A stretch of DNA of 64,000 nt from Chthoniobacterales bacterium (GCA_038207335.1 JBBQZX010000008.1:64001-128000); one strand, 5' to 3'; shown: positions 32,590 through 60,157, counted from the stretch's first letter. Notes: a model not told the origin generated them from the letters alone. Made by a program: numbers and translations.

Positions 32590-32676
32590 GAGTCACGAGC
32601 TGAGAGTTGAGTGAGCAACACCTGCAACGCACTCGAAAAGCCACGTCACCCCGCTGCCCTCTCTCAACTCTCGACT
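32584..32676. repeat. Inverted pair of heptamer arrays (AGTTGAG)n ... (CTCAACT)n
   Basis: AGTTGAG AGTCACG AGCTGAG AGTTGAG at 32584-32611; CTCAACT CTCGACT at 32663-32676. Confidence 0.6.
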
Positions 32677-32758
32677 AAAAGGCCTCACCCTCCGCTCTCC
32701 CCATTCCCTCATTGAAAACTTCCCCAACCCGGCGAACAGTCCACTCCCCGCCCCGACG

Positions 32759-34315: not shown

Positions 34316-34338
34316 GCCGTCGGCTTTTCTCTTTCCGA

Positions 34339-35652: not shown

Positions 35653-35653
35653 A

Positions 35654-36523: not shown

Positions 36524-36823
36524 TGTTTTGGGTTCGAGAGCAGATCGTTTTGACCCGAAGCTGGACTCGCGTAGGAAAAGCGAATTAGTAGGACAATTCA
36601 ATGTCCATTCTCATCAGCTACAAGGTCAAAGCCTGGCTCGTTGCCGGTTGCGGTGGCGGCACCTACGCGAACGAGAACCACCTCAAAAATGGAACTCGGG
36701 CGACGCTTTCCGGCCATTCGGAACACCTCCTCGAGAGGGCACGTCGTGGAGGGGTGTCGCGCGCCGGAAATTCTCGGGCTCGTCGCAAAATGTGGTCGGC
36801 ATCCAATCCGCAACGAATACTCC

Positions 36824-37867: not shown

Positions 37868-37874
37868 AAGCTGC

Positions 37875-39155: not shown

Positions 39156-39170
39156 GACAAAAGGATAAAT

Positions 39171-40343: not shown

Positions 40344-40476
40344 CGGTGCGTGCGTGTTTAATCCGCTTTGAGGAAGACGGCAAGCAGGGCACTTTTACTG
40401 AACCGAAATTTCCTGTCGCCGACTCAAATCGCGCAGCTACGTTCCACCGCACCAAGCGCCGCATTTCTCCCCCCGC

Positions 40477-43311: not shown

Positions 43312-43485
43312 TGAAGAAGATTTTCGGTGCGAGGAGTCGAAGAAAGGTGCGCACGCTCATCCAAGAACCCGCCCTCGTCACGCACGAAAGCCGTGAAAGC
43401 AAGCCGACGGGACAGGGCTTGATAAAACATCGACGGCGGGGGAATGCTGAGGCTTGCTCACTCTCCCTCACCGTCGGCTGGCACC

Positions 43486-44625
43486 GTGAAAATCGCGCTC
43501 TCCATTCTCTGCGAAAATCCGAATCGGAAGACGGGGCTGACGACGCTTTTTCACGAGTTCGTGCGTGAGAGTCTCGCGCTGGAGCCGGGCGTTGAGTGGA
43601 TCGTTTTTGCGGGGCCAAAACAGACGTGGACGATCGACGATCCGCGGGTGCGGGTGGTGCGGGATTTTCCAGCAAACGACCGGCTGCAAATGCGGCTGCT
43701 TGCGGATCATTTCCGGGTGCCGGGACGGGCACGCGAACTCGGCGCGACCGTGCTGCTGACGGTGGGCTTCGTCCCGTTGCGGAAAACGCTGCCGACGGTG
43801 ATGCACATGCTTTCGCTACAGCATCTGGACCGGAGCAATCGCGTCGGATTTTTGCGGCAATTTTACCGGCGTTGGATGGCGCGGCGCGGCTTTACGGACG
43901 CGGAGATGATCGTGACGAATTCGGAATGCGCACGGGACCAAATCCTCGCGGATGAGCCGTACTGCGGGGAGCGGCTCTTCGTGAGCTACGAAGGTTTGCA
44001 GCACGCGCAATTTCATCCGCGCTCCGAGCCGGACGAGGCGGTGGCGGTGGAGGAAAAGTTCGGTTTGCGACCCGACTATCTGCTGTGGGTTTCCAACTTT
44101 TATCCCTACAAACAGGCGGTGCTTTTGCTGGAGGGCTACGCGCTTTTGGAGCCGGCACTCCGAAACTCAATGCCGCTCTTGATGGTCGGCGGCGATTGGG
44201 AAAATCGGGTGGAACTCGCGAAGGCGCGGGCGCGGACGCTCGGCATTTTGGACGATGTGAAATTCGTCGGCTGGGTCGGGGACGAATGGCTTGCTCCGCT
44301 CTTCCGTCAGGCGCGGATTTTCGCGCTGCCGAGCCGTGAGGAGACGTTTGGCCGCTGCGTGCTGGAGGCGATGGCGTGCGGCACGCCGTGCTTGGTGAAC
44401 GACATCCCCATCATGCACGAGGTGACCGCCGAACACGCGGAGATCGTCGATTTTCGCGATGCGCAGGCAGTGGCAGCGGCGCTGCGACGGCTCATTTCGG
44501 ATGCCGCGTTGCGCGAAAATTTGCGCTCCGCGGGTATCCGGCGGGCGGACGATTTCAGCTTCGAAAAGCTGACGCGGGAGCGCCTTAATATCATCCGCGC
44601 CGCGGCCGGGCAGGTCGCGAGGTAA
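43486..44625 (+). CDS. Glycosyltransferase family 4
   Basis: VSNFYPYK, PSREETFGRCVLEAMACGTP; GTG start at 43486. Confidence 0.88.
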   Translation: MKIALSILCENPNRKTGLTTLFHEFVRESLALEPGVEWIVFAGPKQTWTIDDPRVRVVRDFPANDRLQMRLLADHFRVPGRARELGATVLLTVGFVPLRKTLPTVMHMLSLQHLDRSNRVGFLRQFYRRWMARRGFTDAEMIVTNSECARDQILADEPYCGERLFVSYEGLQHAQFHPRSEPDEAVAVEEKFGLRPDYLLWVSNFYPYKQAVLLLEGYALLEPALRNSMPLLMVGGDWENRVELAKARARTLGILDDVKFVGWVGDEWLAPLFRQARIFALPSREETFGRCVLEAMACGTPCLVNDIPIMHEVTAEHAEIVDFRDAQAVAAALRRLISDAALRENLRSAGIRRADDFSFEKLTRERLNIIRAAAGQVAR

Positions 44626-44968: not shown

Positions 44969-45940
44969 ATGCAAAAAGTTTTCGTCACCGGAGCAGCCGG
45001 CTTCATCGGCAGCACGCTCGTCGATCGGCTGCTGGAAAAAGGGTGCGAGGTAGTGGGGTGGGACAACTTTTCAACCGGGCAGGAGCGGTTCGTTTTGGCG
45101 GCGGCGGAGCAGCCGAAATTCAACCTCGTGCGCGGCGATACGCTCAATCTCGCCGCGTTGACGGCGGCGATGGCGGGATGCGATTTCGTGGTGCATTTCG
45201 CGGCGAATGCGGACGTGCGTTTCGGCACCGAGCAGCCGGGGAAGGACGTGGAGCAAAACACGATCGCGACTTTCAACGTGCTCGAAGCGATGCGCGCGAA
45301 TGGCATCAAGCGCATCGCGTTTTCCTCCACCGGATCGGTTTACGGCGAGGCGGCGAAAATCCCGACGCCGGAGGATGCGCCGTTCCCGATCCAGACTTCG
45401 CTCTACGGCGCGTCGAAGCTCGCGGGCGAGGGGCTCATCGCGGCGTATTGCGAGGGGTTCGGATTCGAAGGTTACGTGTTTCGCTTCGTCTCGATCCTCG
45501 GCGAGCGCTACACGCACGGGCACATTTTCGACTTCTACAAGCAGCTCCTCGAGCATCCAGATCACCTCCGCGTGCTCGGCGATGGGGCGCAGCGAAAGTC
45601 GTATTTGTATGTGCAGGATTGCATCGACGCGATCCTGCACGTCACCTCCGCGCGGCTCGCGGACGCATCAAAACATCGCGTGGAAATCTACAATCTCGGC
45701 GCGCCGGAATACTGCCGCGTGACGGATTCGATCGGTTGGATTTGCGCGCATCTCGGGCTGTCACCCCGGCTCGATTTCACCGGCGGCGAACGCGGCTGGA
45801 TTGGCGATAATCCGTTCATCTTCCTGGACACGGAAAAGGCGCAGGCGACCGGCTGGAAGCCGAGGCTGACGATCCGCGAAGGCGTGGTGCGGACAGTCGA
45901 TTGGCTGCGCGAAAATCAATGGGTTTTCGTCCAACGATGA
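44969..45940 (+). CDS. NAD-dependent nucleotide-sugar epimerase/dehydratase (extended SDR)
   Basis: VTGAAGFIG, SSTGSVYG, YGASK, HGHIFDF, GW.GD. Confidence 0.9.
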   Translation: MQKVFVTGAAGFIGSTLVDRLLEKGCEVVGWDNFSTGQERFVLAAAEQPKFNLVRGDTLNLAALTAAMAGCDFVVHFAANADVRFGTEQPGKDVEQNTIATFNVLEAMRANGIKRIAFSSTGSVYGEAAKIPTPEDAPFPIQTSLYGASKLAGEGLIAAYCEGFGFEGYVFRFVSILGERYTHGHIFDFYKQLLEHPDHLRVLGDGAQRKSYLYVQDCIDAILHVTSARLADASKHRVEIYNLGAPEYCRVTDSIGWICAHLGLSPRLDFTGGERGWIGDNPFIFLDTEKAQATGWKPRLTIREGVVRTVDWLRENQWVFVQR

Positions 45941-46803
45941 AGCTGGCCGGGCAGAATGTGATCGTCACGGGAGGCAGTCAGGGACTCGGGCGGGCAATTG
46001 TGGAGGAGTTCGGAAGCGCGGGAGCGAATGTGCTTTTTTGCGCACGTGACGAAATGCAGGCGCGGGGCGCGATGGAGGCAATGAAGCTCATTTTTTCGCA
46101 CGGAAATCGCATCGTTGCGCAGCCATGCGATGTGTCGAACGAAGACGATGTCTCGCGATTGTTTTCTTACGCGGAGTCGGAATTTGGAGCTGTGAATGCA
46201 GTGATTAACAATGCGGGTGTTCAAGCTCCGATCGGCCTCGCAGAGGAGAACGATTGGTCGGAATGGCGGCGATGCGTGGAGGTGAATCTTTTTGGCACGA
46301 TGCTGATGTGCCGCGCCGCAATCCCGATTTTCAAAAAGGTCGGGTGCGGAAAAATTGTGAATCTCTCTGGCGGCGGAGCAGCAAGTCCGCGGGCAAATTA
46401 TTCGGCTTACGCAGCTTCGAAAGCAGCGGTGGTGCGGCTGACGGAAACACTTGCGGAAGAACTTTGCGGATTTCGCGTCGATGTGAACGCGGTTGCGCCC
46501 GGAGCGTTGAACACGCGGATGCTTGCGGAGACGCTCGCGGCGGGATCGGAGCAGGCGGGGGCAACGGCCTTTGGGCAGGCGGAGAAGCAGGCGGGCAGCG
46601 GCGGCAATTCAATGCAACGTGCGGCTGCGCTGTGCGTTTTTCTCGCGTCACCCGAGAGCAATGGAATCACCGGGCGGCTGCTTTCAGCGCCTTGGGATCC
46701 GTGGTCGACGTTGAGCGCACGCGCGGACGAATTGGCCGCGTCCGACATTTATACGTTGCGACGAATCCTGCCCGAAGACCGTGGAAGAAACTGGAATGAA
46801 TGA
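45937..46803 (+). CDS. Classical SDR oxidoreductase
   Basis: TGGSQGLG, NNAG, YAASK, VNAVAPG; ATGA overlap with the epimerase. Confidence 0.9.
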   Translation: MKLAGQNVIVTGGSQGLGRAIVEEFGSAGANVLFCARDEMQARGAMEAMKLIFSHGNRIVAQPCDVSNEDDVSRLFSYAESEFGAVNAVINNAGVQAPIGLAEENDWSEWRRCVEVNLFGTMLMCRAAIPIFKKVGCGKIVNLSGGGAASPRANYSAYAASKAAVVRLTETLAEELCGFRVDVNAVAPGALNTRMLAETLAAGSEQAGATAFGQAEKQAGSGGNSMQRAAALCVFLASPESNGITGRLLSAPWDPWSTLSARADELAASDIYTLRRILPEDRGRNWNE

Positions 46804-47788
46804 GACGCTGAAATTCGCAGTCGTCGGGTGCGGCTTGATCGGGCGGAAACGGGTCACAGCGATGCGTGCGGGGCAGCTCGCGGTGGCTTGCGATGTGCAG
46901 CTCGCGCGGGCTGAAAGCCTGGTCGCCGAGGCGCGTTCGGGACGCGCGACGGCGGACTTTCACGATGCGGTGAATGATGCGGCGGTGGATGCGGTGATCG
47001 TCTCGACCCTGAACGGCTCGCTCGCGGAAATCGGACTCGCAGCGATTCACGCCGGCAAGCATGTGCTCGTGGAAAAACCGGGCGGGATTTCAGCCGCGCA
47101 ACTCGCAGAAATGCGCGAAGCCGCGACGGCGAAAAACGTGCGGGTGCGGGTCGGCTACAATCACCGGTTTCATCCCGCGTTTCAAAAGGCGCGCGAGCTT
47201 TTCGAGGCGGGCGCACTGGGGCCGATGATGTTCATCCGCGCGCGCTACGGGCACGGTGGGCGGGTCGGCTACGATCGCGAATGGCGCGCCGATCCGGCGG
47301 TTTCCGGCGGCGGCGAGCTGATCGATCAGGGCGTGCATTTGATCGATCTCGCGCGCTGGTTTCTCGGCAATTTCACCGGTCTCGAGGGACACGCGACGAC
47401 GAGCTTTTGGGATATGAAGGTGGACGACAATGCGTTCCTTTCGCTCCGCACCGCGGGCGGGCAGACGGCGTGGCTGCACGCGAGCTGCACGGAGTGGAAA
47501 AATCTTTTCTCGTTCGAGATTTACGGGCGCGACGCGAAGCTGCACGTCGAGGGGCTCGGCGGGAGCTACGGAATCGAGCGGCTCTATTTTTACAGGATGT
47601 TGCCGGAGATGGGGCCGCCCGAGACGACGATCTGGGAATATCCGCGCGGCGATCGGTCGTGGGCGCTGGAGATGGCGGAGTTTGAACAAGACATCGCGCG
47701 CGGGCGCGAGCCGTCGCCGGGGCTCGATGAGGGGCTGGCGGTGATGCGCGTGGTGGACACGATTTACAAGAAATGCGGTTACCCGTGA
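46796..47788 (+). CDS. Gfo/Idh/MocA family oxidoreductase
   Basis: VVGCGLIG, GKHVLVEKP, VGYNHRF, GGGELIDQGVHLID. Confidence 0.92.
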   Translation: MNETLKFAVVGCGLIGRKRVTAMRAGQLAVACDVQLARAESLVAEARSGRATADFHDAVNDAAVDAVIVSTLNGSLAEIGLAAIHAGKHVLVEKPGGISAAQLAEMREAATAKNVRVRVGYNHRFHPAFQKARELFEAGALGPMMFIRARYGHGGRVGYDREWRADPAVSGGGELIDQGVHLIDLARWFLGNFTGLEGHATTSFWDMKVDDNAFLSLRTAGGQTAWLHASCTEWKNLFSFEIYGRDAKLHVEGLGGSYGIERLYFYRMLPEMGPPETTIWEYPRGDRSWALEMAEFEQDIARGREPSPGLDEGLAVMRVVDTIYKKCGYP

Positions 47789-47898
47789 TCCGCGCTTCGC
47801 GCGCCCGTGGCTTTCCGCAAATGCTCTAGGTTCGCTGAACGCCGCAAGAAGAACGGAACTGTCGCCAAGGAGATTTGAATCATCCAGTTTACCCACGC

Positions 47899-48951
47899 AT
47901 GCGCAAACTACTCGTCACCGGCTCTTCGGGACTGATCGGCTCCGAAGTCACGGGCTATTTCTGCGAACGAGGCTGGGAAGTGCATGGAGCCGACAACAAC
48001 ATGCGGGCGGACTTTTTCGGCCCCGCGGGAGACACGCGCTGGAACCAGAACCGGCTCCTGGCGACACATACGGGGTTCCGCCATCACGAGCTGGACATCC
48101 GGGATCGCGCGGCGGTGCTCGCGTGTGTCGAGTCGCTGCGTCCGGCGATGATCGTCCATACCGCAGCACAGCCCAGCCACGATCTCGCCGCCTCACGGCC
48201 GTTCGACGATTTTGATGTCAACGCTGGCGGCACGCTGAATCTGCTCGAAGCGGCGAGGCGTCATGCGCCCGAGACAGTCTTTGTGCACATGAGCACTAAC
48301 AAGGTGTACGGCGACCGTCCCAACTCCATCCGACTCCGCGAACTTCCCACCCGATGGGACTACGATGATCCGGCTTACGCAGAGGGGATCTCGGAAACAT
48401 TTCCCATCGATCAGAGCAAGCACAGCCTCTTCGGCGCATCGAAGGTCGCGGCAGACATCATGGTGCAGGAATATGGACGTTATTTCGGCATGAAGACTTG
48501 CTGCCTGCGAGGGGGCTGCCTCACCGGTCCGAATCACAGCGGAGTCGAGCTGCACGGATTCCTCAGCTACCTGATTCAGTGTAACCTTCAAGGCTGCCCG
48601 TATCATGTTTACGGCTATGGGGGTAAGCAGGTGCGTGATAACATCCACGCCCTGGATGTTGCGCGGTTCATCCACGCATTCTCCGAGGCACCGCGTTCCG
48701 GGGAAGTTTATAACATCGGGGGCGGTCGCGCCAATAGCTGTTCGATACTGGAGGCGTTTGATCGCATCGCCGCGCTCACCGGAAAGAAGATGGAACACGA
48801 TTACATGAACAAAAATCGCGAGGGTGACCACATCTGCTACATCAGCGACCTATCGAAAATGAAGGCGCACTTCCCCGGGTGGAACATCACTCAGTCGCTT
48901 GATAACATCTTCGAGCAGATCCACCAGTCAGCTGCTTCGGGGAGGGTGTGA
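47899..48951 (+). CDS. NAD-dependent epimerase, CDP-paratose 2-epimerase (RfbE/Tyv)-like
   Basis: [41 protein letters not shown]. Confidence 0.82.
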
Positions 48952-48989
48952 GCGCTTCGAGGGAAGGCACACCGCGAGACCGCTTCCGC

Positions 48990-50933
48990 TCAATCCGCCG
49001 CCGGGAGAACTGAGGGTTGCAAGCGCAGCAGCGGGGCGGAGGCCAGAACGGTGACGAAGCTGATGGAAAACAGGAGTATCCACTTGCCGCTTTGCGCGAG
49101 GCCTTCCGTGAATGGGGTGCAACGCCCAGAGGCGCGAGGCTCGGAAAACGCAAACCACGCCGTTTCGCTCGCATCGGTGGCCTCGAGGTGGTAGGACGTG
49201 CCGGGATGGACGCGGGCATAGATCGCATCGCGATCGCGCAGCAGAGAGGGGAATGTGGTGCGCAGTTTCGGGAGCAGATCCTCGCGGGTGCCGGCTGCTT
49301 CATCGACGAGTTCGAGCTTCGCCTCGGGGATCCGGTATGCGGAGAAACGCGCGCGTTTGTCCAAGAGGAATTCGACGACGATGTAGTCGCGCTGCGGGAC
49401 GAACGCATTCGAGATGAAGCGCGCGGTAAAGGCCTCCCGCATTTCGGGATGGTAGCTGCCCCAATAGTTTGCCGCCGGCCGACCGAAGTAGGCTGGGTGG
49501 GCGGCACCAGGGAGAAAATTCGCGGCACCCGCGTTCACGGGCGAGAGCGGCCAGCCGATGACATCGGCACTGGCGAGCACAGGGTTGGTTCCCGCCGTCC
49601 GGAGCCAGGGGCGGAGTACTTCCGCCGGGGCGATGTCACGGGTTTCGTCAGTCCCGGCAGGCAGGACGGATGGTTCTTCGGAGATCCATCTACGCAAATC
49701 CCCTACCTTGGGGGGCTCTGGCCATTCGCCATTTTCCCGCGCGACGAAAGGCCATGTGCGGTAAAGGAGATGCAGGGAAAACCCGAAGGCGAGGAGGGTG
49801 ATCGTGCCAAGGGTGAAGACGCGCACCGGGAAGCCGACGGGCGTCTCCTGCCAAAGCCTCCGCAGGCAGATCGCGCTGAGGAGCGGGAGCAGGACGAGAA
49901 TATCTGTGTAGCGGTTCGAAGGCATGTTGAAATTGCCCTCGTCCGCGCGGAAGAGTCCCATGCCCACCGTTTGAAGCAGCACCAGCGCCGCGACGGCGAG
50001 CGTGAATTCGTTGGCCGACGTGCGCCATCGTGACAGGCGTATGTAGCGCCAGACGAAGAGGCCGACCGGGAGCAAAGTCACCAAGGCGGAGGCCGGAAGG
50101 AAGACGTTGGGCCACGCCGCCGCCTTAAGCACCGTGGTGAAGAACTGAATCACGCCGGGGCGCGGAGCAGCGGCTTCACCGCGCGGCATGGAGATGAAGG
50201 CATAGAGGAAAAGGGCCAGCGAGGCGGCGATGAGCAGCGCATCCGGTCCGCTGCAGCGCCTTCGGAAGAAGGAGCGCAGGCCCGCGACCGCGACGATTGC
50301 GAGACAGACGAGGCAACCCGAACCGAGGCTCCACGTGGCCATCAGCGCGAGCACGAGCGCCGCAAAGGCATGCCACCATCGATCGCGGCGGAAGACCACC
50401 AGGGACAGAGCTAGCAGCGAGAAAGACATCGTGGCAGCGAAACCCGAAAGGAAGCCCCAGCTAACGCGATGGCCCGCGAAGGGAATGCCAATCAGAAAAA
50501 CCACGGCGAGCGAGAGCAAGAGGTTCTGGCGTGCCGGAATCCCGCGCGCGAAGAGCGCCTGCACGATCGCCGCATAACCCCCTGCGACGAGCGCCCCGAT
50601 CACGAATTCAAGCCGCATGTCGTACGCGCCGTTGAGGAGGAAACAGAGCAGGCTGCTCGCACGAGCGAAGGCGTAAAAATGCGCGCCGTGCCGCTCGAAA
50701 ACGAACTGCCAGTGATGCTCGCCCTGCGACCAACGCTCGAGCCAGGCGACCGTCGTCCAGTCGTCGGCGAAAGGCACCTGCGTGGTGAATCTTTCACCCA
50801 CAGCCAGACGAAGCGCGGCGACCATCAGTCCCGTGAGTACCACGCAAAGCCACGGGCGCGCCCACTCGAGTCGCTGACTGAGACCCGCAACGAAGCGTGC
50901 GGGCAGGGAGGGGAGTGCGAGGTTGCTATTCAT
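48990..50933 (-). CDS. Polytopic membrane protein, probable GT-C-type glycosyltransferase
   Basis: N-terminal TM then P..DDW acidic loop and H..H, about 11 TMs, SNRY motif, C-terminal periplasmic domain; downstream of a polyprenyl-type GT2. Confidence 0.55.
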   Translation of the reverse strand: MNSNLALPSLPARFVAGLSQRLEWARPWLCVVLTGLMVAALRLAVGERFTTQVPFADDWTTVAWLERWSQGEHHWQFVFERHGAHFYAFARASSLLCFLLNGAYDMRLEFVIGALVAGGYAAIVQALFARGIPARQNLLLSLAVVFLIGIPFAGHRVSWGFLSGFAATMSFSLLALSLVVFRRDRWWHAFAALVLALMATWSLGSGCLVCLAIVAVAGLRSFFRRRCSGPDALLIAASLALFLYAFISMPRGEAAAPRPGVIQFFTTVLKAAAWPNVFLPASALVTLLPVGLFVWRYIRLSRWRTSANEFTLAVAALVLLQTVGMGLFRADEGNFNMPSNRYTDILVLLPLLSAICLRRLWQETPVGFPVRVFTLGTITLLAFGFSLHLLYRTWPFVARENGEWPEPPKVGDLRRWISEEPSVLPAGTDETRDIAPAEVLRPWLRTAGTNPVLASADVIGWPLSPVNAGAANFLPGAAHPAYFGRPAANYWGSYHPEMREAFTARFISNAFVPQRDYIVVEFLLDKRARFSAYRIPEAKLELVDEAAGTREDLLPKLRTTFPSLLRDRDAIYARVHPGTSYHLEATDASETAWFAFSEPRASGRCTPFTEGLAQSGKWILLFSISFVTVLASAPLLRLQPSVLPAAD

Positions 50934-50940
50934 GGGGAAC

Positions 50941-51621
50941 CTACTTCACGCCGACGACGAGGAACTGTCGGCCGATAAAGCGCCACGCGAACGCGAGCCG
51001 CAGGTAGAGTCGCAGGAAAAACAGCGGTGGCCGGAAGCCGGCCGACATCGAGTAGGGCAGGAACTTTGGAATGCACCGCTCGATGCGGAAGGATTCCAGC
51101 CGGAGCAATTCGGAGAGCGATGCTTCGGTCAGAGTCACGTGATGATCCCAAAAATCCCAATAGGAGCCAGGCAGGAATTTGATGTTCGGCCCCATGCAGA
51201 TGAGGCGTCCGCCAGGTCGCAGGCAGCGCCAAGCCTGCGCGACTGTCTTCTGCAGCAATTCCTTATCCGGCAAATGCTCGAAGAAGTTTGAGGTGAAGAC
51301 GACGTCGAGCGACTCGTCGGGAAGCGGCCACATTGCGGAACAATCCTGATTGAGGAAAGTGACTCCTTCACCGAGTCGCTGGCCACCTTCGGGGTTGAGA
51401 TCCATCCCATATTTTTTGGTCGCCTGGATCTGGCTGATGAATTCACCCCAGCCGCAGCCGAGATCGAGCACGGTCTGATCCGTGCCGACGAGACGCTGGA
51501 AATACTCGCGCGTGAGCACGGCCCAGACACGACGGCGGTATTCGTGCATCGCGCTGAAACGCAATTGGTATTCGCGCTGGAGTTCAGCGCCTTTTTCCGT
51601 AGCAGAGGATTCGGGGTTCAT
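50941..51621 (-). CDS. Class I SAM-dependent methyltransferase
   Basis: VLDLGCG.G, GMDLN, SNFFEHL, LRPGG. Confidence 0.87.
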   Translation of the reverse strand: MNPESSATEKGAELQREYQLRFSAMHEYRRRVWAVLTREYFQRLVGTDQTVLDLGCGWGEFISQIQATKKYGMDLNPEGGQRLGEGVTFLNQDCSAMWPLPDESLDVVFTSNFFEHLPDKELLQKTVAQAWRCLRPGGRLICMGPNIKFLPGSYWDFWDHHVTLTEASLSELLRLESFRIERCIPKFLPYSMSAGFRPPLFFLRLYLRLAFAWRFIGRQFLVVGVK

Positions 51622-52424
51622 GGGTTTGATTCCTCCGCCGGCAGGTTATTCTTGTGGTAGTCGCCCCGGCTGAAATATTTCTCCAGCCACACATAGAGGC
51701 AGATGAAAAGGTAGCGGCTGCCCATCTCGCGGATTTTCAGCTTCGCCTCGCCCGTCCGGCGGTTGCGCCAGGTGATGGGTATGACGGTCCACGAATAGCC
51801 GCGCACGATAGCCTTGAGCGGGATTTCGACAGTGAGGTTAAAGTGCGGCGCGATGAGCGGACGGCAGCCATCTATCACCGTCTTGCGATAGGCCTTGAAG
51901 GCATTCGTCACGTCGTTGAGGCGGATGTTGAAAAGCAGGCGGAGGAAGAGGTTCGCCAGACGGTTCATGCGGAGCTTCAGCCAGGGGTAATCAATGACGC
52001 CGCCGCCTTTCACAAACCGGCTGCCAAAGACGCAGTCGTGTCCCTCGTTGAGGAGTTGCCAATAGCGGACGACATCCCGGCAGTCGTCGGAATCATCCGC
52101 CATCATGATGGTGACCGCATCGCCCTTCATCTGATCGAGACCGCAGACAATGGCGCGGCCGAAGCCGTGCGGGCCCTCGTTTCGCAGCGACTGAAGCTCG
52201 GGAATGCGCCCACGCATCTCCTGCAGGATCGGCCAAGTCGCATCGCTGCTGCCGTCATCTACCACGATGATTTCGTGGGGGACATTGTGCAGGCGCAGTT
52301 CCAAGTGCAGGCGCTCGACGGTCGCGGCGATGCAGCCCGCCTCGTCGCGCGCGGGGATGACGATGCTCATTAGGCGCAACGGCGGCGGCGGGATGGGAGC
52401 AGGAACTGTTTCAACCATGTTCAT
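51618..52424 (-). CDS. Glycosyltransferase family 2 (polyprenyl-phosphate/DPM1-GtrB-like)
   Basis: SIVIPARDE, IVVDDGSSDAT, G.GRA...G, MMADDSD, VFGSRF, D...AFKAY; ATG 52424 overlaps the upstream stop. Confidence 0.88.
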   Translation of the reverse strand: MNMVETVPAPIPPPPLRLMSIVIPARDEAGCIAATVERLHLELRLHNVPHEIIVVDDGSSDATWPILQEMRGRIPELQSLRNEGPHGFGRAIVCGLDQMKGDAVTIMMADDSDDCRDVVRYWQLLNEGHDCVFGSRFVKGGGVIDYPWLKLRMNRLANLFLRLLFNIRLNDVTNAFKAYRKTVIDGCRPLIAPHFNLTVEIPLKAIVRGYSWTVIPITWRNRRTGEAKLKIREMGSRYLFICLYVWLEKYFSRGDYHKNNLPAEESNP

Positions 52425-53488
52425 GCGCCGGAAAGTTCCAGCCAACGGGGATTTTTCTCCGCGTGCTCCGCGATCTCTGTGAGCACGGATTGCATCGGGC
52501 GCCGGGGTTTCCAATCCCAGAATTTTTCCGCACGGCTGCTGTCCATGACCATCCACGGGATGTCGAAGCGGCGAGGCCTGCCATCGGGTTCCACCGTGTG
52601 GGAGCCGAATCGTTCCGCGCACCACGCGCTGAGTTCCGCGAGCGACATGGCGTTTTCCGGGCCGCCGCCGGCATGGGTAATCCTCGGCGCGGATGCGTCA
52701 GGGTTTTGCATTTGCCGCACCAGCAACGGCACGAGATCGGCCGGGTGCAGCATATCGCGCACTTGGCCGCCCAAACCCTCGAAACCGAGGTAACGCAGCG
52801 GAAGCCGGGCGCGCCAGGCATGAAGCCAATAAGAGAATATGCCCTGCTCCGCAGTCCCGAACTGTCCCGGTCCCGCCAAGACCCCGCAGCGGTTGATCCA
52901 TACGGGAAAGGAAAACGTCGCGCCGTATTCGAGTGCGAGCTGCTCGGAAGCCAGTTTCGTGCTTCCGTAGAGCGAAATGGGCGGTTCGGTGCTGAAATCC
53001 TCGCGAAGGCCGCGGGCGCTCACTCCCGGCGCGAGGGGCTTGGCGTCATCCAGCTCAAAGCGCAGGCCCTCCCGCCGAAGCGGCAGGCTGGTGAGCGCAG
53101 CGATCGAGTAAACACGGCTCGTGCTCAGCAGGATCAAGCCGGCGGCGGTGCGCCGACAGTATTCGAGCAGGTTGATCGTACCGAGCAGGTTGTGCTCGAC
53201 GAGCTGTCGGCTGCTGGCCTTGCCATCAATACCCGCCTGCACGCTGGGATTCGCGGCGGCATCAATCACCCAATCGACGGGCGGGAGAGTTTCCAGATCG
53301 CTGGCAGAGCGCAAATCACCATGGAGAACCCTAACCCTGGATTTCTGAAGCAAGGCGCGATTCGTTTCACTGCCGGGGCGGCTCAAGTTATCCATGCCCG
53401 AGATTTCCAAACCGGGCGAATGGCCGCAGAATGCCTGCGACAAGGCCGCTCCGGCAAATCCGCAAATGCCTGTGATGAAAACCTTCAT
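52421..53488 (-). CDS. NAD-dependent epimerase, second RfbE/Tyv-like paralog
   Basis: ITGICGFAG, DNLSRPGSE.N, STSRVY, SLYGSTK, NRCGVLAGPGQFG...QG, GGQVRD. Confidence 0.82.
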   Translation of the reverse strand: MKVFITGICGFAGAALSQAFCGHSPGLEISGMDNLSRPGSETNRALLQKSRVRVLHGDLRSASDLETLPPVDWVIDAAANPSVQAGIDGKASSRQLVEHNLLGTINLLEYCRRTAAGLILLSTSRVYSIAALTSLPLRREGLRFELDDAKPLAPGVSARGLREDFSTEPPISLYGSTKLASEQLALEYGATFSFPVWINRCGVLAGPGQFGTAEQGIFSYWLHAWRARLPLRYLGFEGLGGQVRDMLHPADLVPLLVRQMQNPDASAPRITHAGGGPENAMSLAELSAWCAERFGSHTVEPDGRPRRFDIPWMVMDSSRAEKFWDWKPRRPMQSVLTEIAEHAEKNPRWLELSGA

Positions 53489-53635
53489 GGGAAATCCGCA
53501 AAATTGCACGGATGGGCAAGCCATGTAAACACGGGATGGACGCAACCTCTTCGCCTGCCGGTGGTTGATCGCTGCATTTCAACCTTTGCAGAGCCCGGCG
53601 CTTTCGAGTTTGAAGGAGGCTGTGACTCTTCCGGA

Positions 53636-54613
53636 ATGATTATCACCCGCTCACCTTTGCGCATTTCCCTCGGCGGCGGCGGCACGGATTTGCCGTCTTA
53701 TTATGAGGAGCACGGCGGGTTTCTCGTTGCGGCGGCGATCGACAAATATGTCTATCTCACGCTGCACGAGACGTTTGTGCCTGAGCTAATCATCAAATAT
53801 TCCAAAATGGAGCGGGTGAAAACGGTGGAGGAAGTGGAGCACCCGATCATTCGCGAGACAATGAAACTGCTCGGGGTGAAAGCGCCGTCGCTGGAGCTGA
53901 CCTCCATGGCGGACATCCCGGCGGGGACTGGGCTGGGGTCGTCGGGGAGTTTCACGACGGCACTTTTGAAGGCGCTGCACGCGCACAAAAATCATCTCGT
54001 GCATCCGAGCGAACTCGCGGCGCAGGCGTGCCGGATAGAGATCGACATCCTCGGTGAGCCGATCGGGAAACAGGATCAGTACATCGCGGCGTATGGCGGG
54101 CTGACTTGTTTTGAGTTCAAGCCGGACGGCAGCGTGGTCGCGGAGGCGCTGAAAATTTCGCAGGAGACGATCTTCAATTTGGAGGACGATCTGCTGCTTT
54201 TTTTCACGGGTTATTCGCGCTCGGCGTCGGCTATTTTGAAAGAGCAGGACGTGAAGAGCAAAGGGCGCGACCAGGCGATGATCGACAATCTGCATTTCGT
54301 GAAAGAGCTCGGATACAAGAGCCGCGCGGCGCTGGAGAGCGGCGATCTCGCGGAGTTTGGGCGGCTCATGGATGTGCATTGGCAGAACAAAAAGAAGCGC
54401 TCCGGCGGCATGAGCAATCCGCGCATCAATGAATGGTACGAGCTCGCGATGGCGAATGGCGCGACGGGCGGAAAGCTGATCGGCGCGGGCGGCGGCGGCT
54501 TCCTCATGTTTCACGCGAGCGACAAGGCGCGGCTGCGGCATGTGCTGCGCGAGGCGGGGATGACGGAGGTGCGCTTCCGTTTCGATTTCGAGGGCACCAA
54601 GCGGGTGATCTGA
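53636..54613 (+). CDS. hddA: GHMP-family sugar-phosphate 1-kinase (HddA/LmbP-like)
   Basis: MIITRSPLRISLGGGGTD, PAGTGLGSS, GKQDQY, GGKLIGAGGGGF. Confidence 0.85.
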   Translation: MIITRSPLRISLGGGGTDLPSYYEEHGGFLVAAAIDKYVYLTLHETFVPELIIKYSKMERVKTVEEVEHPIIRETMKLLGVKAPSLELTSMADIPAGTGLGSSGSFTTALLKALHAHKNHLVHPSELAAQACRIEIDILGEPIGKQDQYIAAYGGLTCFEFKPDGSVVAEALKISQETIFNLEDDLLLFFTGYSRSASAILKEQDVKSKGRDQAMIDNLHFVKELGYKSRAALESGDLAEFGRLMDVHWQNKKKRSGGMSNPRINEWYELAMANGATGGKLIGAGGGGFLMFHASDKARLRHVLREAGMTEVRFRFDFEGTKRVI

Positions 54614-54615
54614 GA

Positions 54616-55332
54616 ATGGGTCTCGCCGGCACTCCAGTCGCGATCCTCGCGGGCGGGCTCGCGACGCGGCTGCGGCCGATTACGGAGACGGTGCCGAAGG
54701 TGCTCATTCCGGTGGCGGGGCGGCCATTTCTGGCACATCAGCTCGAGATGCTGCGCTCGCAGGGAATCCGCCGGGCAGTGCTGTGTGTCGGGCATCTCGG
54801 CGAGCGCGTGCGGGGGGAATTTGGGGACGGCAGCGCGCATGGTGTGGCGCTCGAATATTCGTTCGACGGGCCCACGCTTCTCGGGACGGGAGGCGCGCTG
54901 AAGCAAGCGTGCGGCTTGCTTGGCGAGCGGTTCTTCGTCTTGTACGGCGACTCGTATTTGCCGACGAGGTTCGCGCCGATCGCCGAGTTTTTTGAAATGA
55001 GCGGGCGGCTCGGACTGATGACTGTTTTCAAAAATGAAGGTCTCTACGACACGAGCAACGTCGTGTTTCGCGACGGCGAGATTTTGATCTACGACAAAAA
55101 ATCGCGCACGCCGGAGACGCGCCACATCGACTACGGGCTGAGCCTTTTTCGTGCGGCTGCGTTTGCGGATTGGCCAGCGCGCGAGGCATTCGATCTAGCG
55201 GATGTGATGCAGCGGCTGCTCGCGCGCGGCCAACTCGCGGGGTATGAAGTGCGCGAGCGTTTTTACGAGATCGGCTCGCACGCCGGGCTCGCCGAACTGA
55301 ACCTCCTCCTCAACTCAAAACCCACGCCATGA
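54616..55332 (+). CDS. hddC: Sugar-1-phosphate nucleotidyltransferase (HddC/LmbO-like)
   Basis: ILAGGLATRL.P.T..VPK.L, LGTGGAL, LYGDSY, FYEIG. Confidence 0.8.
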   Translation: MGLAGTPVAILAGGLATRLRPITETVPKVLIPVAGRPFLAHQLEMLRSQGIRRAVLCVGHLGERVRGEFGDGSAHGVALEYSFDGPTLLGTGGALKQACGLLGERFFVLYGDSYLPTRFAPIAEFFEMSGRLGLMTVFKNEGLYDTSNVVFRDGEILIYDKKSRTPETRHIDYGLSLFRAAAFADWPAREAFDLADVMQRLLARGQLAGYEVRERFYEIGSHAGLAELNLLLNSKPTP

Positions 55333-55925
55333 CCTTTGCCGAACAATATCTCAGCGAAACCACCGACATCGTCTCGAAGCTCGATCCGGGCGTGATGGAG
55401 GCGATGGCGGACAAGCTCGCGGATCTGCGCGCGGGCGGCGGGCGGCTCTTCATCCTCGGCGTCGGAGGCAGCGCTGCGAATGCCTCGCACGCGGTGAACG
55501 ACTTCCGAAAAATCGCGGGGATCGAGTGCTACGCGCCGACCGACAATGTCTCCGAACTGTCCGCGCGGACGAACGACGAAGGCTGGGCGACGGTCTTCGC
55601 AGAATGGCTTCGCGGAAGCCGGCTCAATGCAAAAGACGGGCTCCTCATTTTCTCGGTCGGTGGTGGGAATCTCGAAAAAAACGTGAGCCCGAATCTCGTG
55701 CAGGCGGTGCAGCTCGCGAAAGAAGTCGGCGCGCTCGTACTCGGCATCGTCGGGCGCGACGGCGGCTTCACGGCGAAAAACGCTGACGTGTGCGCGATCG
55801 TGCCGACGGTGAATGCGGCAAACGTCACGCCGCATTCGGAGGCGTTTCAGGGCGTGCTGTGGCATCTGCTCGTCTCGCATCCCAAGCTGAAAATCGTGGA
55901 GACGAAGTGGGAGAGCGTGAAGTGA
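55329..55925 (+). CDS. gmhA: SIS-domain phospho-sugar isomerase (GmhA-like, divergent)
   Basis: G.GGSAA..SH, A..ND.G, S.GG...S.NL..A, G..G.DGG. Confidence 0.75.
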   Translation: MTFAEQYLSETTDIVSKLDPGVMEAMADKLADLRAGGGRLFILGVGGSAANASHAVNDFRKIAGIECYAPTDNVSELSARTNDEGWATVFAEWLRGSRLNAKDGLLIFSVGGGNLEKNVSPNLVQAVQLAKEVGALVLGIVGRDGGFTAKNADVCAIVPTVNAANVTPHSEAFQGVLWHLLVSHPKLKIVETKWESVK

Positions 55926-56458
55926 GCGCGGCGCGCGCGGTTTTTCTCGACCGCGACGGCGTGCTGAATGGCGCGGTCGTGCGGGATGGAAAGCCGTATC
56001 CGCCGGCGAATGCGGAGGAGTTCGAACTGCTGCCGGGAGTCGTCGAGGCGTGCCTGCTTTTGAAGGAACGCGGCTTTCTGCTGATCGTCGCGACGAATCA
56101 GCCGGACGTCGGTCGCGGCACGCAGGAGCAGGCCGTCGTCGAGGTGATGCACCGAAAAATGTGCGATGCGCTGCCGCTCGATCACGTCGAAGTCTGCTAC
56201 GATCCGGGGCAAGGCGTGGCGTCGGATTTTCGCAAACCCGCGCCGGGGATGCTGCTGCGCGCGTCGTCGCTTTTCGGGATCGACCTGAGCCAGTCGTACA
56301 TGGTCGGCGACCGGTGGCGCGACATCGACTGCGGGCAAGCCGCGGGCTGCCAGACGATTTTCATCGACCGCGGATACGATGAAAGTTTGCGCCAGCAGCC
56401 TGACTTTCGCGCCGCCGATCTGGCCGCGGCGGCGGCGCTGATTCTTCGCTTGAATTGA
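55922..56458 (+). CDS. gmhB: HAD-IIIA sugar-bisphosphate phosphatase (GmhB/LmbK-like)
   Basis: AVFLDRDGVLN, ATNQ, RKPAPGML, MVGDRWRDI; GTG start overlaps the upstream stop. Confidence 0.87.
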   Translation: MSAARAVFLDRDGVLNGAVVRDGKPYPPANAEEFELLPGVVEACLLLKERGFLLIVATNQPDVGRGTQEQAVVEVMHRKMCDALPLDHVEVCYDPGQGVASDFRKPAPGMLLRASSLFGIDLSQSYMVGDRWRDIDCGQAAGCQTIFIDRGYDESLRQQPDFRAADLAAAAALILRLN

Positions 56459-56504
56459 CCAATTCCGAGGCGATGCCAGTCTGAAACAACCATCCCAAAA
56501 TCCC

Positions 56505-57227
56505 ATGAACCCGCTCGAATCTCTCAAAGTCAAAATCTTCGCTGACGGCGCGGACAAAAAAGGAATGCTCGATCTTTACGCCAACCCGCTGATCCAGGGG
56601 ATGACGACGAATCCGACGCTGATGAACAAGATCGGAATCAAGGACTATGAAGCCTTCGCGCGCGACGTGCTGGAGACCGTGACGGACAAGCCGATTTCGT
56701 TCGAGGTGTTCTCGGATGAGTTCGCCGACATGCGGAAGCAGGCGCTGAAAATCGCGGCGTGGCAGAAGAATGTGTTCGTGAAGATCCCGGTGATGAATCC
56801 GCGTGGCGAGGCGTCCTACGAGCTGATTAGCGATCTCGCGAACGAAGGCGTGCAACTCAATGTGACCGCAATTTTGACGGTCGAGCAGGTGAGCTGCGTG
56901 GCGGAATCGCTCTCGCCGAAGACGGCGTCGGTGGTGTCGGTCTTCGCCGGCCGCATCGCGGACACGGGTCGCGATCCGGGGCCGATCATGGAAGAAAGCT
57001 TGAAGGTTCTGCGCGACTTGCCGGCCGCGGAATTGCTGTGGGCGAGCGTGCGCGAAGTGCTGAATATTTTCCAAGCCGACGCGTGCGGCACTCACATCGT
57101 GACGGTGCAGCACGACATCCTCGGCAAGGCATTGAAAATGGCCGGGATGGACCTCACGGAGCTGTCGCTCGATACCGTGCGGATGTTCGACAAGGATGCA
57201 AAAGCGGCCGGCTTCACATTGAGCTGA
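56505..57227 (+). CDS. tal: Small (TalC-type) transaldolase
   Basis: KIFADGAD, GMTTNPTL, ISFEV, VKIP (Schiff-base Lys), NVT, SVFAGRIAD, WAS.R. Confidence 0.9.
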   Translation: MNPLESLKVKIFADGADKKGMLDLYANPLIQGMTTNPTLMNKIGIKDYEAFARDVLETVTDKPISFEVFSDEFADMRKQALKIAAWQKNVFVKIPVMNPRGEASYELISDLANEGVQLNVTAILTVEQVSCVAESLSPKTASVVSVFAGRIADTGRDPGPIMEESLKVLRDLPAAELLWASVREVLNIFQADACGTHIVTVQHDILGKALKMAGMDLTELSLDTVRMFDKDAKAAGFTLS

Positions 57228-57274: not shown

Positions 57275-58489
57275 ATGACCGCGCGAGCCGCTCCGACACG
57301 GATACTTTCGATTTTCAACAAGTACATCGAGCGCGGCGGGGAGGAGGTCGCGGTCGAGGAAATCTGCGCGGCGCTGGCGCGTCATCCGGCGGAGTTCGAG
57401 CCGCGGGAGCTGCTTTTTCACAGCGCGGATTGGCGTCGCGAGCCGGTGCCGTCGGTGTGGAAAAAGGCGCGGTGGTTTGTGCGAAATCCGACCTCGATCG
57501 CGCGGCTGCGTGAGTCGCAATCGGCGCTGCGGGCGGATTGCTGGCTGGCGCACAATCTTTTTCCGGTCGGCTCGGCGGCGATTTATCGCGAGGCGCTGCG
57601 ACTCGGCGTGCCAATGATCCAGTATCTGCACAACTACCGCCCGTTCTCAGTGAGCGGCTATTTGTGGGATGGCGAGAAGCTCGCACCGGGCGGATTGCGT
57701 GGCTCGTTTTGGCAGGAGATCCGCGCGGGCGCGTGGCAGGATTCGCAACTCAAGACGGCGGGCTACGCGGTCGTGCTGAAGGCAATGCACGCGCTCGGGT
57801 GGTTCGAGGCGGTGAAGTCGTGGGTGGCAATTTCGGAGTTCATGCGGCAGCGGTTCATCGAGGCTGGGGTGCCGGCTGAGCGGATTTTCACGGCACCGCA
57901 TTTTTGGCGCGCGATGGAGTCGCCGCCCGCGCCGCGCGACGACGGGTATTTTCTTTTTTTGGGAAGACTGATCACGGCAAAGGGCGTACGCGTGCTTTTC
58001 GAGGCGTGGGCGCTGGTGGAGGAGGCCCTCGGCTCACGCGCGCCGCGGCTGGTGATCGCAGGCGCGGGGCCGCTGGAGGGCTCGGTGCGCGAGTGCTGCG
58101 GGCGGCGGGAGCGCGTGGAATTTGCGGGGCATGTGAGCGGGGAGAAGAAGGCGGAATTGATCGCGGGCTGCTCGGCGATGGTGGCGCCGTCGATCTGGTG
58201 GGAACCGCTCGGGCTGGTGACTTATGAGGCCTACGATTTTCAAAAGCCGATGCTCGCCGCGGCGTCGGGTGGACTGACGGAAACAGTGGTCGATGGCGAG
58301 ACGGGGCTGTTACACGAGCCCGGCAATGCGCGGCAACTCGCGGAGCAAGTGCTCGCGCTGCACAGCGACCCCGGCCGGCGCGCGGCGATGGGTGCAAACG
58401 GCCGCGCGTGGCTGGTGGGAAATACGAACGAGGCGCTGTGGCTGCAGCGCTTTGACCGGGCAGTGGAGTATGCGCTGGCAGGGCGGTGA
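57275..58489 (+). CDS. Glycosyltransferase family 4
   Basis: Y..RGGE, HN.FP, LHNYR, FLGRL...KG, PSIWWEPLGLVTYEA. Confidence 0.9.
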   Translation: MTARAAPTRILSIFNKYIERGGEEVAVEEICAALARHPAEFEPRELLFHSADWRREPVPSVWKKARWFVRNPTSIARLRESQSALRADCWLAHNLFPVGSAAIYREALRLGVPMIQYLHNYRPFSVSGYLWDGEKLAPGGLRGSFWQEIRAGAWQDSQLKTAGYAVVLKAMHALGWFEAVKSWVAISEFMRQRFIEAGVPAERIFTAPHFWRAMESPPAPRDDGYFLFLGRLITAKGVRVLFEAWALVEEALGSRAPRLVIAGAGPLEGSVRECCGRRERVEFAGHVSGEKKAELIAGCSAMVAPSIWWEPLGLVTYEAYDFQKPMLAAASGGLTETVVDGETGLLHEPGNARQLAEQVLALHSDPGRRAAMGANGRAWLVGNTNEALWLQRFDRAVEYALAGR

Positions 58490-58600: not shown

Positions 58601-60157
58601 TCACGCGCAGTCGAGTTCTACGGCGCTCACGGAGGCTGCAGGGACGCGCCAACGGTAGGTCTCGGCGGGGGGCAGGACGTGCTCCTGAGGCTGGAAGGCG
58701 CGGGGATTGATCTCGCTGGCTTCGTGGCGGAGGGAGTCGGGGGCGATGGCGAGGACTCGTGCCGCGATGATGGTCTCCCCTTTCACAGAAAAGGAAACCT
58801 CGGTGCTGCCGTTGAAGTCCTTGTTGGCAACGTGGAGGAAGACTTTCTTTCCGGTGCGGCTGGCGGCGATGTCGAGGCTGCCGGGGGCCGAAGTGACGGC
58901 GATGGCCTGGCGTCCGTTGTGGTGCTTGAAGAGGCGCATGACGGCGCCGGCCGGGAGCAGGTAGCTGAGGCGGCCGGGGATCTGGAGGAGGAGGGCGCTG
59001 GAGGTCCAGCGGTTGCCGTTGAAGTCGGCGCAGGTCGCGATTTTCACGCGGGCGCCGGCGCGCTGGTAGCTGTTCATGGAGCGGGCGTGATAGACGCCGG
59101 TGAGCCACTCGGTGAGGATGGGGTTGAGGTTTCGCGGGGAGAGGCTGAGGTGGCCCTCGGTGACGGCGAGGCCGTGCGGGGTTTTCTTTGCGTCGATGAT
59201 TTCGACCATGCGCCGGAGCCGCTGCTCCACGCGGTCGGCGAGGCCGGCGAGTTCCTGCCAGGCCTGCTCTGGATTGGACTGGTAGCGGTTGCCGGCGAGG
59301 ACGGTGTCTTTGCGCTGCGGCGACTGGCCCATCATGTGCATGGCAATGTGGTCGATTTGCTCGCCGGCGCGCTCGATCATGTCGCCGGCCCATGCTTCGC
59401 CGCGGCCGGGGAGGTCGCCCCACGCGATGAGTTGGAGCGCTGGGTCGCGCTCGCGCATGGCTTTGGCAAAGTCGATGGTGTGGGCGATGCAGTCGTCTTT
59501 GGAGAAGTTGTCGGGCGCGTAGCTGGTCTCGTTCCCCAGCTGCCAGAGTCGGAGGTTGAAGGGCTCGGGATGCCCATTGGCACGGCGTTCGCGGTCGGAG
59601 GGGTCGTTGCAATAACTGACCCAGTCGGCCGCTTCGCGCGCGTCCCCGGTGCGGTCGCCCTCGGGCGTCTTGCGGTATTCCTCACGCCCGTCGCCGAGGA
59701 AATTGACGCAGTAGAAACCTTCGCACCCGACGCGCTGGCAGTAGTCGGCAAACTCGTGCGTGCCGACGCGGTTGCTCTCCCAGCCATCCCACATGTAGTT
59801 GCGATGCCGCGGTCGCTCGGCCGCGGGGCCGATGCCTTCGCGCCATTTATAGTAGCGGCTGTAGATGCCGCCGAAGCGCATGAGGTCGGGCGCGAGGTCG
59901 CGCGTGGTCTCGATGAAGTCTGCGCGCCAGTCGTCGGCACGGTGATCCCACGAGCCCTCTACGCTGGCGTCGGTGAGGCCGAGCGGCTCCATGAATTGCA
60001 TGTGGAGCCACGGCGAGATGTCGAAGAGCGGCGCGGGATCGACGACGATCGCGGCGCCGGGACGCGGCTCTGCGGCGGATTGCGCTAGCGCTTGTCGTGC
60101 GAGGAGCGCGCCGCCAGCGACGGCCGTGCAGCGTTGGATGAATGTGCGGCGTTGCAT
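58601..60157 (-). CDS. Tat-exported GH51 alpha-L-arabinofuranosidase-like glycosidase
   Basis: MQRRTFI twin-arginine signal; FMEPLG, RFGG...YKWREGIGP...RP, ESNRVGTHEF, WQLGNE acid/base motif. Confidence 0.85.
   Translation of the reverse strand: MQRRTFIQRCTAVAGGALLARQALAQSAAEPRPGAAIVVDPAPLFDISPWLHMQFMEPLGLTDASVEGSWDHRADDWRADFIETTRDLAPDLMRFGGIYSRYYKWREGIGPAAERPRHRNYMWDGWESNRVGTHEFADYCQRVGCEGFYCVNFLGDGREEYRKTPEGDRTGDAREAADWVSYCNDPSDRERRANGHPEPFNLRLWQLGNETSYAPDNFSKDDCIAHTIDFAKAMRERDPALQLIAWGDLPGRGEAWAGDMIERAGEQIDHIAMHMMGQSPQRKDTVLAGNRYQSNPEQAWQELAGLADRVEQRLRRMVEIIDAKKTPHGLAVTEGHLSLSPRNLNPILTEWLTGVYHARSMNSYQRAGARVKIATCADFNGNRWTSSALLLQIPGRLSYLLPAGAVMRLFKHHNGRQAIAVTSAPGSLDIAASRTGKKVFLHVANKDFNGSTEVSFSVKGETIIAARVLAIAPDSLRHEASEINPRAFQPQEHVLPPAETYRWRVPAASVSAVELDCA

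Follow-up and report, generated by a model that had tools for sequence, protein, structure and literature searches.

A conserved eight-gene cassette in a Chthoniobacterales glycan locus is probably related to the lincosamide octose pathway

A stretch of 64,000 nucleotides from a Chthoniobacterales bacterium (GCA_038207335.1, JBBQZX010000008.1:64001-128000; hereafter the window) carries eight genes that form one conserved cassette, interrupted in this genome by a 5.6-kb module unrelated to it. The cassette is real, conserved and uncharacterised, and it is probably a variant of the lincosamide octose route. Judging from the encoded sequences, it probably makes a nucleoside diphosphate (NDP)-octose, most plausibly linked to guanosine diphosphate (GDP), from octulose 8-phosphate, and this sugar would be tailored by lincosamide logic for a Wzx/Wzy glycan. 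Three results are new: a direct match between the cassette and CcbZ of Streptomyces caelestis, a coupling of its isomerase to a transaldolase that holds in 31 of 31 genomes and extends to loci in which the transaldolase has been replaced, and the existence of two cassette variants. The open literature that we searched contained no description of the cassette; subscription journals lay outside the coverage of that search.

Conservation of the eight-gene cassette

The cassette encodes, in order, an epimerase, a short-chain dehydrogenase/reductase (SDR), a Gfo/Idh/MocA oxidoreductase (Gfo), a kinase, a nucleotidyltransferase, an isomerase, a phosphatase and a transaldolase (Table 1). All eight reading frames are open, full-length and on the same strand, and each has a consistent Pfam assignment and recognisable catalytic motifs, which bears out the gene assignments of the first-pass annotation of the window. 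That annotation described two operons lying near each other. Both blocks exist, with genes that overlap or stand 2-46 bases apart, but they are parts of a single cassette split by the module. The same gene order recurs in 25 of 80 related loci, which were fetched by their transaldolase and include many short contigs. At a minimum of 40% identity and 60% cover, the partners encoded in these 80 loci are the phosphatase (71 loci), isomerase (58), nucleotidyltransferase (43), kinase (37), Gfo (30), epimerase (27) and SDR (18). The order is also retained in Rhizobium jaguaris (CCGE525) at 48-71% identity, and Lawsonia intracellularis carries all eight genes in a rearranged order. The recurrence of the grouping in the 25 loci and in these two organisms indicates that it is not due to chance.

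The nearest relatives of the cassette are found in records titled Chthoniobacterales and Verrucomicrobiota. No cassette was found in any of the ten genomes of the same genus that were examined (54-96% complete), so the cassette is accessory. Cassette genes also occur in records titled Bifidobacteriaceae, Acidoferrum, Sulfotelmatobacter and Aquilonibacter (L010, L053, L057, L071, L073, L076, L079, L022, L060, L070). Those of L053, L060 and L070 cluster with Verrucomicrobiota genes in our tree; because the titles are possibly wrong, these records were left out of the counts for other phyla. Fusions between cassette enzymes are frequent (P0122-P0239, P0399-P0506) and join isomerase to phosphatase, nucleotidyltransferase to isomerase, SDR to Gfo, and Gfo to kinase, nucleotidyltransferase or phosphatase.

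Relationship to the lincosamide octose pathway

The sugar genes of lincomycin biosynthesis, as listed in excerpts of PMC4351081, comprise LmbR (transaldolase), LmbN (isomerase), LmbP (kinase), LmbK (phosphatase), LmbO (guanylyltransferase), LmbM (epimerase), LmbL (dehydrogenase), LmbZ (oxidoreductase) and LmbS (aminotransferase). The cassette provides the same enzyme classes, from transaldolase through oxidoreductase, as the amino-octose pathways of S. lincolnensis and S. caelestis, and its Gfo, kinase and nucleotidyltransferase genes follow one another as Z, P and O do in the table excerpted from PMC4351081. Unlike the lincosamide clusters, the cassette is part of a putative Wzx/Wzy-type glycan locus that includes glycosyltransferases of family GT4, has an SDR in the place of LmbS and lacks a carrier-protein fusion.

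The Gfo protein links the cassette directly to the lincosamide pathway. A profile built from four Gfo sequences of cassettes and run against proteins longer than 395 amino acids retrieved CcbZ (E 5.5e-66) among the 120 matches listed. Around CcbZ stood Gfo proteins of the cassette type, including some fused to SDR, kinase, nucleotidyltransferase, HAD or SIS domains; the C-terminal carrier domain of CcbZ is present as expected, albeit as a weak match. The Gfo protein of the window shares 38% identity with CcbZ over 278 amino acids and is its best match of 22 in the genome (194 versus 88 bits), and the two are reciprocal best matches. When 72,556 plasmids were searched, the top five matches to CcbZ were cassette genes of Rhizobium and Lawsonia. 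In a quick tree, whose outgroup branches are long, CcbZ groups with 26 cassette rows in a single clade, apart from six paralogues of the genome, with a support of 96 in the Shimodaira-Hasegawa-like approximate likelihood-ratio test (SH-aLRT). We conclude that the Gfo protein is orthologous to LmbZ/CcbZ. Within the clade, CcbZ is sister to the Gfo proteins of cassette loci L093, L094 and L105 (support 96; 47-50% identity).

Those three loci and L097 carry a second branch of the cassette, composed of an isomerase-transaldolase-kinase set, two epimerases, a dehydrogenase without its catalytic Cys, a Gfo, an extended SDR, a nucleotidyltransferase and a phosphatase; L105 contains both branches in one locus. 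Judged by sequence, these loci are the leading candidates for the closest kin of the lincosamide pathway.

The cassette occurs in two forms that differ in a homologue of UDP-glucose dehydrogenase resembling LmbL. This gene is present in 24 of the 43 cassettes that have both the epimerase and the SDR. The catalytic Cys of the dehydrogenase is replaced in all 46 loci that encode it, by Thr in 42, Ser in two, Asn in one and His in one. Without this Cys, the enzyme would presumably end its oxidation at the ketone, which is what a secondary alcohol at C6 would call for, and a role equivalent to that of LmbL fits its sequence. Nine-gene cassettes match eight of the nine lincosamide sugar genes in the excerpted list one to one (PMC4351081). 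The SDR, which we infer to be a ketoreductase or dehydrogenase, is without a counterpart in that list. No LmbL-like gene was found in five of five other genomes with the eight-gene form, where the matches were ordinary homologues at about 30% identity, and the SDR tree separates cassettes by the presence or absence of the gene. Since the dehydrogenase is missing from these five genomes and from that of the window, and since the SDR tree separates the two forms, the form with eight genes is a genuine variant.

These relationships suggest a pathway, of which the individual reactions, the chain length, the nucleotide and the transfer by a GT4 enzyme are all predictions. The transaldolase would move a C3 unit from fructose 6-phosphate or sedoheptulose 7-phosphate onto ribose 5-phosphate to yield octulose 8-phosphate, a reaction that excerpts of PMC5854111 ascribe to LmbR. 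The isomerase would convert octulose 8-phosphate to octose 8-phosphate, from which the kinase, phosphatase and nucleotidyltransferase would generate the NDP-octose. In the eight-gene form, the epimerase, CcbZ-like Gfo and SDR would use oxidation and reduction to fix the configuration of stereocentres and would remove no oxygen. Because this form lacks the Cys-less dehydrogenase, the genome of the window would be expected to make an octose epimer that is not deoxygenated. In nine-gene cassettes, oxidation of the secondary C6 alcohol by the Cys-less dehydrogenase would yield a ketone; loss of water at C8 and a reduction by the CcbZ-like enzyme would follow. A comparable 6,8-dehydration has reportedly been described for lincomycin (Wang, 2020). 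At the ketone on which LmbS performs its amination, the SDR of the nine-gene form would act as a reductase, giving a deoxy-octose. Finally, a GT4 enzyme would add the octose to a Wzx/Wzy repeat unit.

The nucleotide is probably GDP. The best matches of the epimerase in the PDB are 3EHE (E 1e-80) and 8RDG (E 2e-74), compared with E 1e-22 for E. coli GalE. In excerpts of PMC12171764, 3EHE and 8RDG (PhGal4E_1) belong to an archaeal subgroup within the GDP-sugar 4-epimerases that is promiscuous. GDP is favoured because these are the nearest solved relatives of the cassette epimerase; the promiscuity of the subgroup means that GDP is suggested rather than fixed.

Transaldolase coupling and alternative sugar products

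The coupling of the isomerase to a transaldolase is visible across the phylum. The isomerase subfamily, defined by at least 54% identity (the next match drops to E 4e-19), occurs in 31 of 301 sampled genomes. A transaldolase above the cut-off of TIGR02134 is present in the identical 31 genomes, 45-2060 bases from the isomerase. None of the 99 genomes that have only distant GmhA-like matches contains a TIGR02134 protein above the cut-off. Besides the window, the 30 remaining loci encode the kinase (29), nucleotidyltransferase (27), Gfo (23), epimerase (19) and SDR (18) at 40% identity or more. Where a transaldolase locus lacked a nearby isomerase, the isomerase was located elsewhere in the genome in eight of eight cases checked. 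We also fetched 80 viral and 80 metagenomic loci by their isomerase and counted those with at least 3 kb on each side; of these, 45 of 46 viral and 16 of 19 metagenomic loci had a transaldolase in the flank. At L155, L271 and L295, the transaldolase beside the same isomerase belongs to another subfamily (28-30% identity), which indicates that the link outlasts gene replacement. The simplest reading is that the isomerase needs a ketose phosphate scarcely supplied by central metabolism.

The transaldolase of the window belongs to TIGR02134 (transald_staph) by score, and this family presumably includes Coxiella. Residues D14, N36, E67, K93, F147, R150 and S181 align with those of solved transaldolases and are ordinary catalytic residues. 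A Schiff-base Lys accompanied by Glu and Phe, here K93, E67 and F147, is what we take to be the signature of a transaldolase rather than an aldolase. The genome has two PF00923 matches, a housekeeping long form (C5) that scores 319 bits and contains no stops and the copy in the window at 133 bits; a separate housekeeping transaldolase, proposed at the outset as a check on the octose reading, is thus present and speaks in favour of that reading. Within TIGR02134, the window protein is a second copy in a glycan locus besides the long housekeeping one, and the 31 members above the cut-off in the phylum sample all stand beside the isomerase. The genome also encodes transketolase, as well as GmhA-like (169 bits, cut-off 209), GmhB-like and RfaE-like (338, cut-off 345) proteins outside the cassette. 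Together with the housekeeping transaldolase, these genes make sedoheptulose 7-phosphate and a heptose route available independently of the cassette. The absence of transketolase, considered as a means of distinguishing C8 from C7 products, was uninformative, since five of five genomes have the enzyme.

The isomerase is also encoded by Roseimicrobium sp. ORNL1, and isomerase genes occur in viral sequences; phages in GenBank gave no isomerase match. Many IMG/VR contigs (L133-L212) carry a four-gene core arranged as isomerase-phosphatase-transaldolase-(glycosyltransferase)-kinase, mostly without a nucleotidyltransferase. On one 149-kb contig (L165:8001-11853), the four-gene core lies between genes for thymidylate synthase/ribonucleotide reductase and phoH, which is a phage setting.

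The strongest competitor to an octose is an unusual NDP-heptose of gluco, altro or ido configuration, or a deoxy form, although we consider it unlikely. The transaldolase would then boost the local supply of sedoheptulose 7-phosphate or use another tetrose acceptor, and a re-tuned isomerase would set a different configuration at C2/C3. The GmhA fold of the isomerase, the HddA-like kinase (which matches heptose kinases of the PDB at E 1e-52), the ordinary appearance of the transaldolase and the few loci with no transaldolase in their flank are all compatible with such a product, and a Cys-less C6 dehydrogenase would suit a heptose no less than an octose. The 99 genomes whose GmhA-like genes lack this transaldolase, as opposed to the 31 of 31 in which the subfamily has it, argue against it. 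So does CcbZ, the one characterised relative found: excerpts of PMC12945683 assign LmbM, LmbL, CcbZ and CcbS to the steps leading from GDP-octose to GDP-lincosamide.

The cassette might instead encode the canonical pathway to GDP-D-glycero-alpha-D-manno-heptose, supplemented by a transaldolase that acts as a booster and by three oxidoreductases for tailoring. The two systems share the logic of isomerase, kinase, phosphatase and nucleotidyltransferase, a GmhA fold and a surface-glycan setting, the same four enzyme classes stand together in one operon, and many homologues of the isomerase are automatically annotated as sedoheptulose 7-phosphate isomerase. Unlike that pathway, the cassette has a fixed transaldolase partner and CcbZ-like and, in its relatives, LmbL-like tailoring genes. 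Its enzymes score far below the canonical models, at 48 bits against a cut-off of 209 for GmhA (TIGR00441), 168 against 600 for HddA, 72 against 250 for GmhB and 78 against 300 for HddC; equivalog cut-offs are strict, and scores below them lower the chance of a canonical heptose function without excluding it. These scores speak against a grouping of the enzymes with GmhA, HddA, GmhB and HddC, an outcome named beforehand as refuting the octose reading.

The isomerase shows the departure from GmhA at the level of residues. It adopts the GmhA fold with a template-modelling (TM) score of 0.73, and its AlphaFold model, with a predicted local distance difference test (pLDDT) value of 84, confirms the fold only. 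N51, H54, D58, E171 and H179 align with D61, H64, E68, Q175 and H183 of GmhA, so that D61, E68 and Q175 are all replaced; 39 of 39 subfamily rows share D58, E171 and H179. In GmhA, H64, E68, Q175 and H183 are fully conserved and the Q175E variant is inactive, according to excerpts of PMC5705639. In addition, the genome has its own GmhA-like protein, only 29% identical to the cassette isomerase. We therefore regard the canonical heptose as very improbable. The genome's GmhA-like protein (L119:5935-6510; G000:C17:111935-112510) itself has D at the position of GmhA H64, and its activity appears uncertain. Two cassette loci contain a second SIS protein of another GmhA-like subfamily adjoining the cassette (L104:13086-16483 and L099:15865-16440); L104 additionally has a second nucleotidyltransferase, a GalE and a GHMP kinase. 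These sets may belong to another higher-sugar pathway.

Least probable of all is a nine-carbon aldose made with a hexose 6-phosphate acceptor, or a higher sugar shortened or branched before it enters the glycan: transaldolases accept several aldose phosphates, and the O-antigen region of Coxiella combines heptose-pathway-like genes of unknown function with branched sugars (excerpts of PMC5843353), but no result of our analysis points to C9 and the sole characterised relative acts on a C8 substrate.

Several observations weigh against the octose reading. The genome of the window (94.7% complete) has no LmbL-like gene, only ordinary homologues at about 30% identity; its absence from the window had been remarked on at the outset and extends to the whole genome, although 24 of 43 related cassettes have one. 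Our orthology comparison covers CcbZ, and the other Lmb roles are agreements at the level of enzyme class with the excerpted list in PMC4351081. The Gfo of the window lies in a clade neighbouring, as sister, the branch that contains CcbZ and not within that branch. Placement of CcbZ outside all cassette rows is not rejected by the approximately unbiased (AU) test (p 0.082), so a common family is shown and nesting is only suggested. LmbN was neither among the 120 longer isomerase homologues listed, where SIS-HAD and nucleotidyltransferase-SIS fusions took up much of the room, nor among 21 candidates checked, which had no carrier-protein fusion; it may thus fall outside this isomerase subfamily. 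The D/E pattern of the isomerase is shared by the second SIS proteins of L099 and L104 and is therefore not unique to the subfamily. The flanks of 3 of 19 metagenomic and 1 of 46 viral isomerase loci showed no transaldolase. Co-inheritance in operons and kinship inflate the co-occurrence counts, and the 31 genomes do not represent independent cases. There is no clade of cassette transaldolases alone, and TIGR02134 proteins from catabolic contexts (L083, L086) are intermixed with them in the tree. The nucleotidyltransferase scores better against MurU (109.5 against a cut-off of 250) than against HddC, and its best PDB matches are MurU-like; the enzyme thus leaves the nucleotide open. Finally, according to excerpts of PMC5843353, the O-antigen region of Coxiella contains a phosphoheptose isomerase gene (cbu0674) and a homologue of heptose kinase/adenylyltransferase whose function is unknown, and the sugars named there are virenose, dihydrohydroxystreptose and, in the core, D,D-heptose, with no octose among them.

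The surrounding glycan locus and its wider meaning

The glycan locus that houses the cassette spans 27 kb (31432-58489). It contains the DegT aminotransferase, Wzx, Wzy-like protein and five GT4s originally reported (Table 1). The Wzx-family protein matches PF13440 above the cut-off. The Wzy_C-like protein (518 amino acids) falls below the Pfam cut-off (E 0.0019) and has an Atlas score of 0.99 to PF04932 clusters; this class takes in both polymerases and ligases. No initiating transferase, Wza or Wzc was seen within the locus. The DegT, Wzx and Wzy-like proteins of the window had no match in any of the 80 transaldolase loci.

DegT had been put forward as the counterpart of LmbS. We rejected it as a cassette member, since none of the 80 transaldolase loci has a DegT match in its flank at E<=1e-6. 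The proposed relationship to the lincosamide pathway is partly supported: the kinship of Gfo with CcbZ speaks for it, and a role of DegT as the LmbS counterpart gained no support. More likely, DegT pairs with another sugar of the locus, such as the product of Gmd.

The inserted module encodes a membrane protein of 647 amino acids without a Pfam match and a GT2 of the polyprenol-phosphate type. Of 301 genomes, 41 encode the GT2, with identities of 49-76%. RfbE-like genes neighbour it in 9 of 11 other GT2 loci inspected and are present, at 40% identity or more, in 2 of 80 cassette loci. We considered the GT2/RfbE insert as a delivery route for the octose and rejected it as a cassette member; the GT2 travels with RfbE-like genes. 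By sequence, the module has the appearance of a lipid-carrier glycosylation unit that serves a different sugar.

A promoter scan gave 0 sites against 2.5 in shuffled sequences, and terminator-like elements numbered 22 against 14.9 +/- 4.6; neither result was used. Elsewhere in the window, an open reading frame (ORF) at 22288-23415 resembles a DNA cytosine methyltransferase with the motif FIDLFCGIGG and adjoins an ORF with a low codon score (20984-22291); the pair (20984-23415) looks like a restriction-modification system. Just past the glycan locus, 58601-60157 encodes a protein with a twin-arginine translocation (Tat) signal and weak alpha-L-arabinofuranosidase domains.

Table 1 Genes of the cassette and other features of the glycan locus
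Feature	Position	Strand	Basis or content
Upstream part of locus	31432-44625		DegT, Wzy_C-like protein, Wzx, two FkbM methyltransferases, four GT4s, methyltransferase, Gmd
DegT aminotransferase	31432-32589		12 kb upstream of cassette
NDP-sugar epimerase, LmbM-like position	44969-45940	+	PF01370
Classical SDR	45937-46803	+	PF00106; TGxxxGxG, NNAG and YxxxK motifs
Gfo/Idh/MocA oxidoreductase, CcbZ/LmbZ family	46796-47788	+	CcbZ comparison
Inserted module, 5.6 kb	47899-53488	+, then -	RfbE-like epimerase (+); membrane protein, S-adenosylmethionine (SAM) methyltransferase, GT2, second RfbE-like epimerase (-)
GHMP sugar-phosphate kinase, HddA/LmbP-like	53636-54613	+	PF00288, PF08544
Nucleotidyltransferase, LmbO-like position	54616-55332	+	PF00483
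SIS isomerase, GmhA-fold ketose-phosphate type, distinct subfamily, LmbN-like position	55329-55925	+	Fold and TIGR00441 score
HAD-IIIA bisphosphate phosphatase, GmhB/LmbK-like	55922-56458	+	DxDG, RKPxPG and GD motifs
Small transaldolase, LmbR-like position	56505-57227	+	TIGR02134, 305 bits (cut-off 282)
Fifth GT4, directly after transaldolase	57275-58489	+	PF00534; start at 57275 read from sequence

The C8 sugars usually listed for bacteria are keto acids of the 3-deoxy-D-manno-oct-2-ulosonic acid (Kdo) type, and to our knowledge aldo-octoses are not recognised as building blocks of bacterial surface polysaccharides. Octoses are mentioned among K antigens without being individually named (PMC10072801). 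Our comparisons raise the possibility, to which we give an even chance, that a widespread, undescribed cassette family puts aldo-octoses and deoxy-octoses into the surface glycans of many bacteria, that marine phages carry its four-gene core, and that the sugar pathway of lincomycin arose as a branch of the family, recruited from the synthesis of surface glycans by a swap of the final SDR for an aminotransferase; the window would represent the non-deoxy variant without LmbL. If the octose reading holds, roughly one-tenth of the sampled genomes of the phylum (31 of 301), together with rhizobia and others, make an aldo-octose, and many gmhA and hddA annotations are wrong. The cassette family would also offer a natural source of enzymes for NDP-octoses and, since CcbZ groups with genes of glycan loci, a concrete origin for the sugar pathway of lincomycin.

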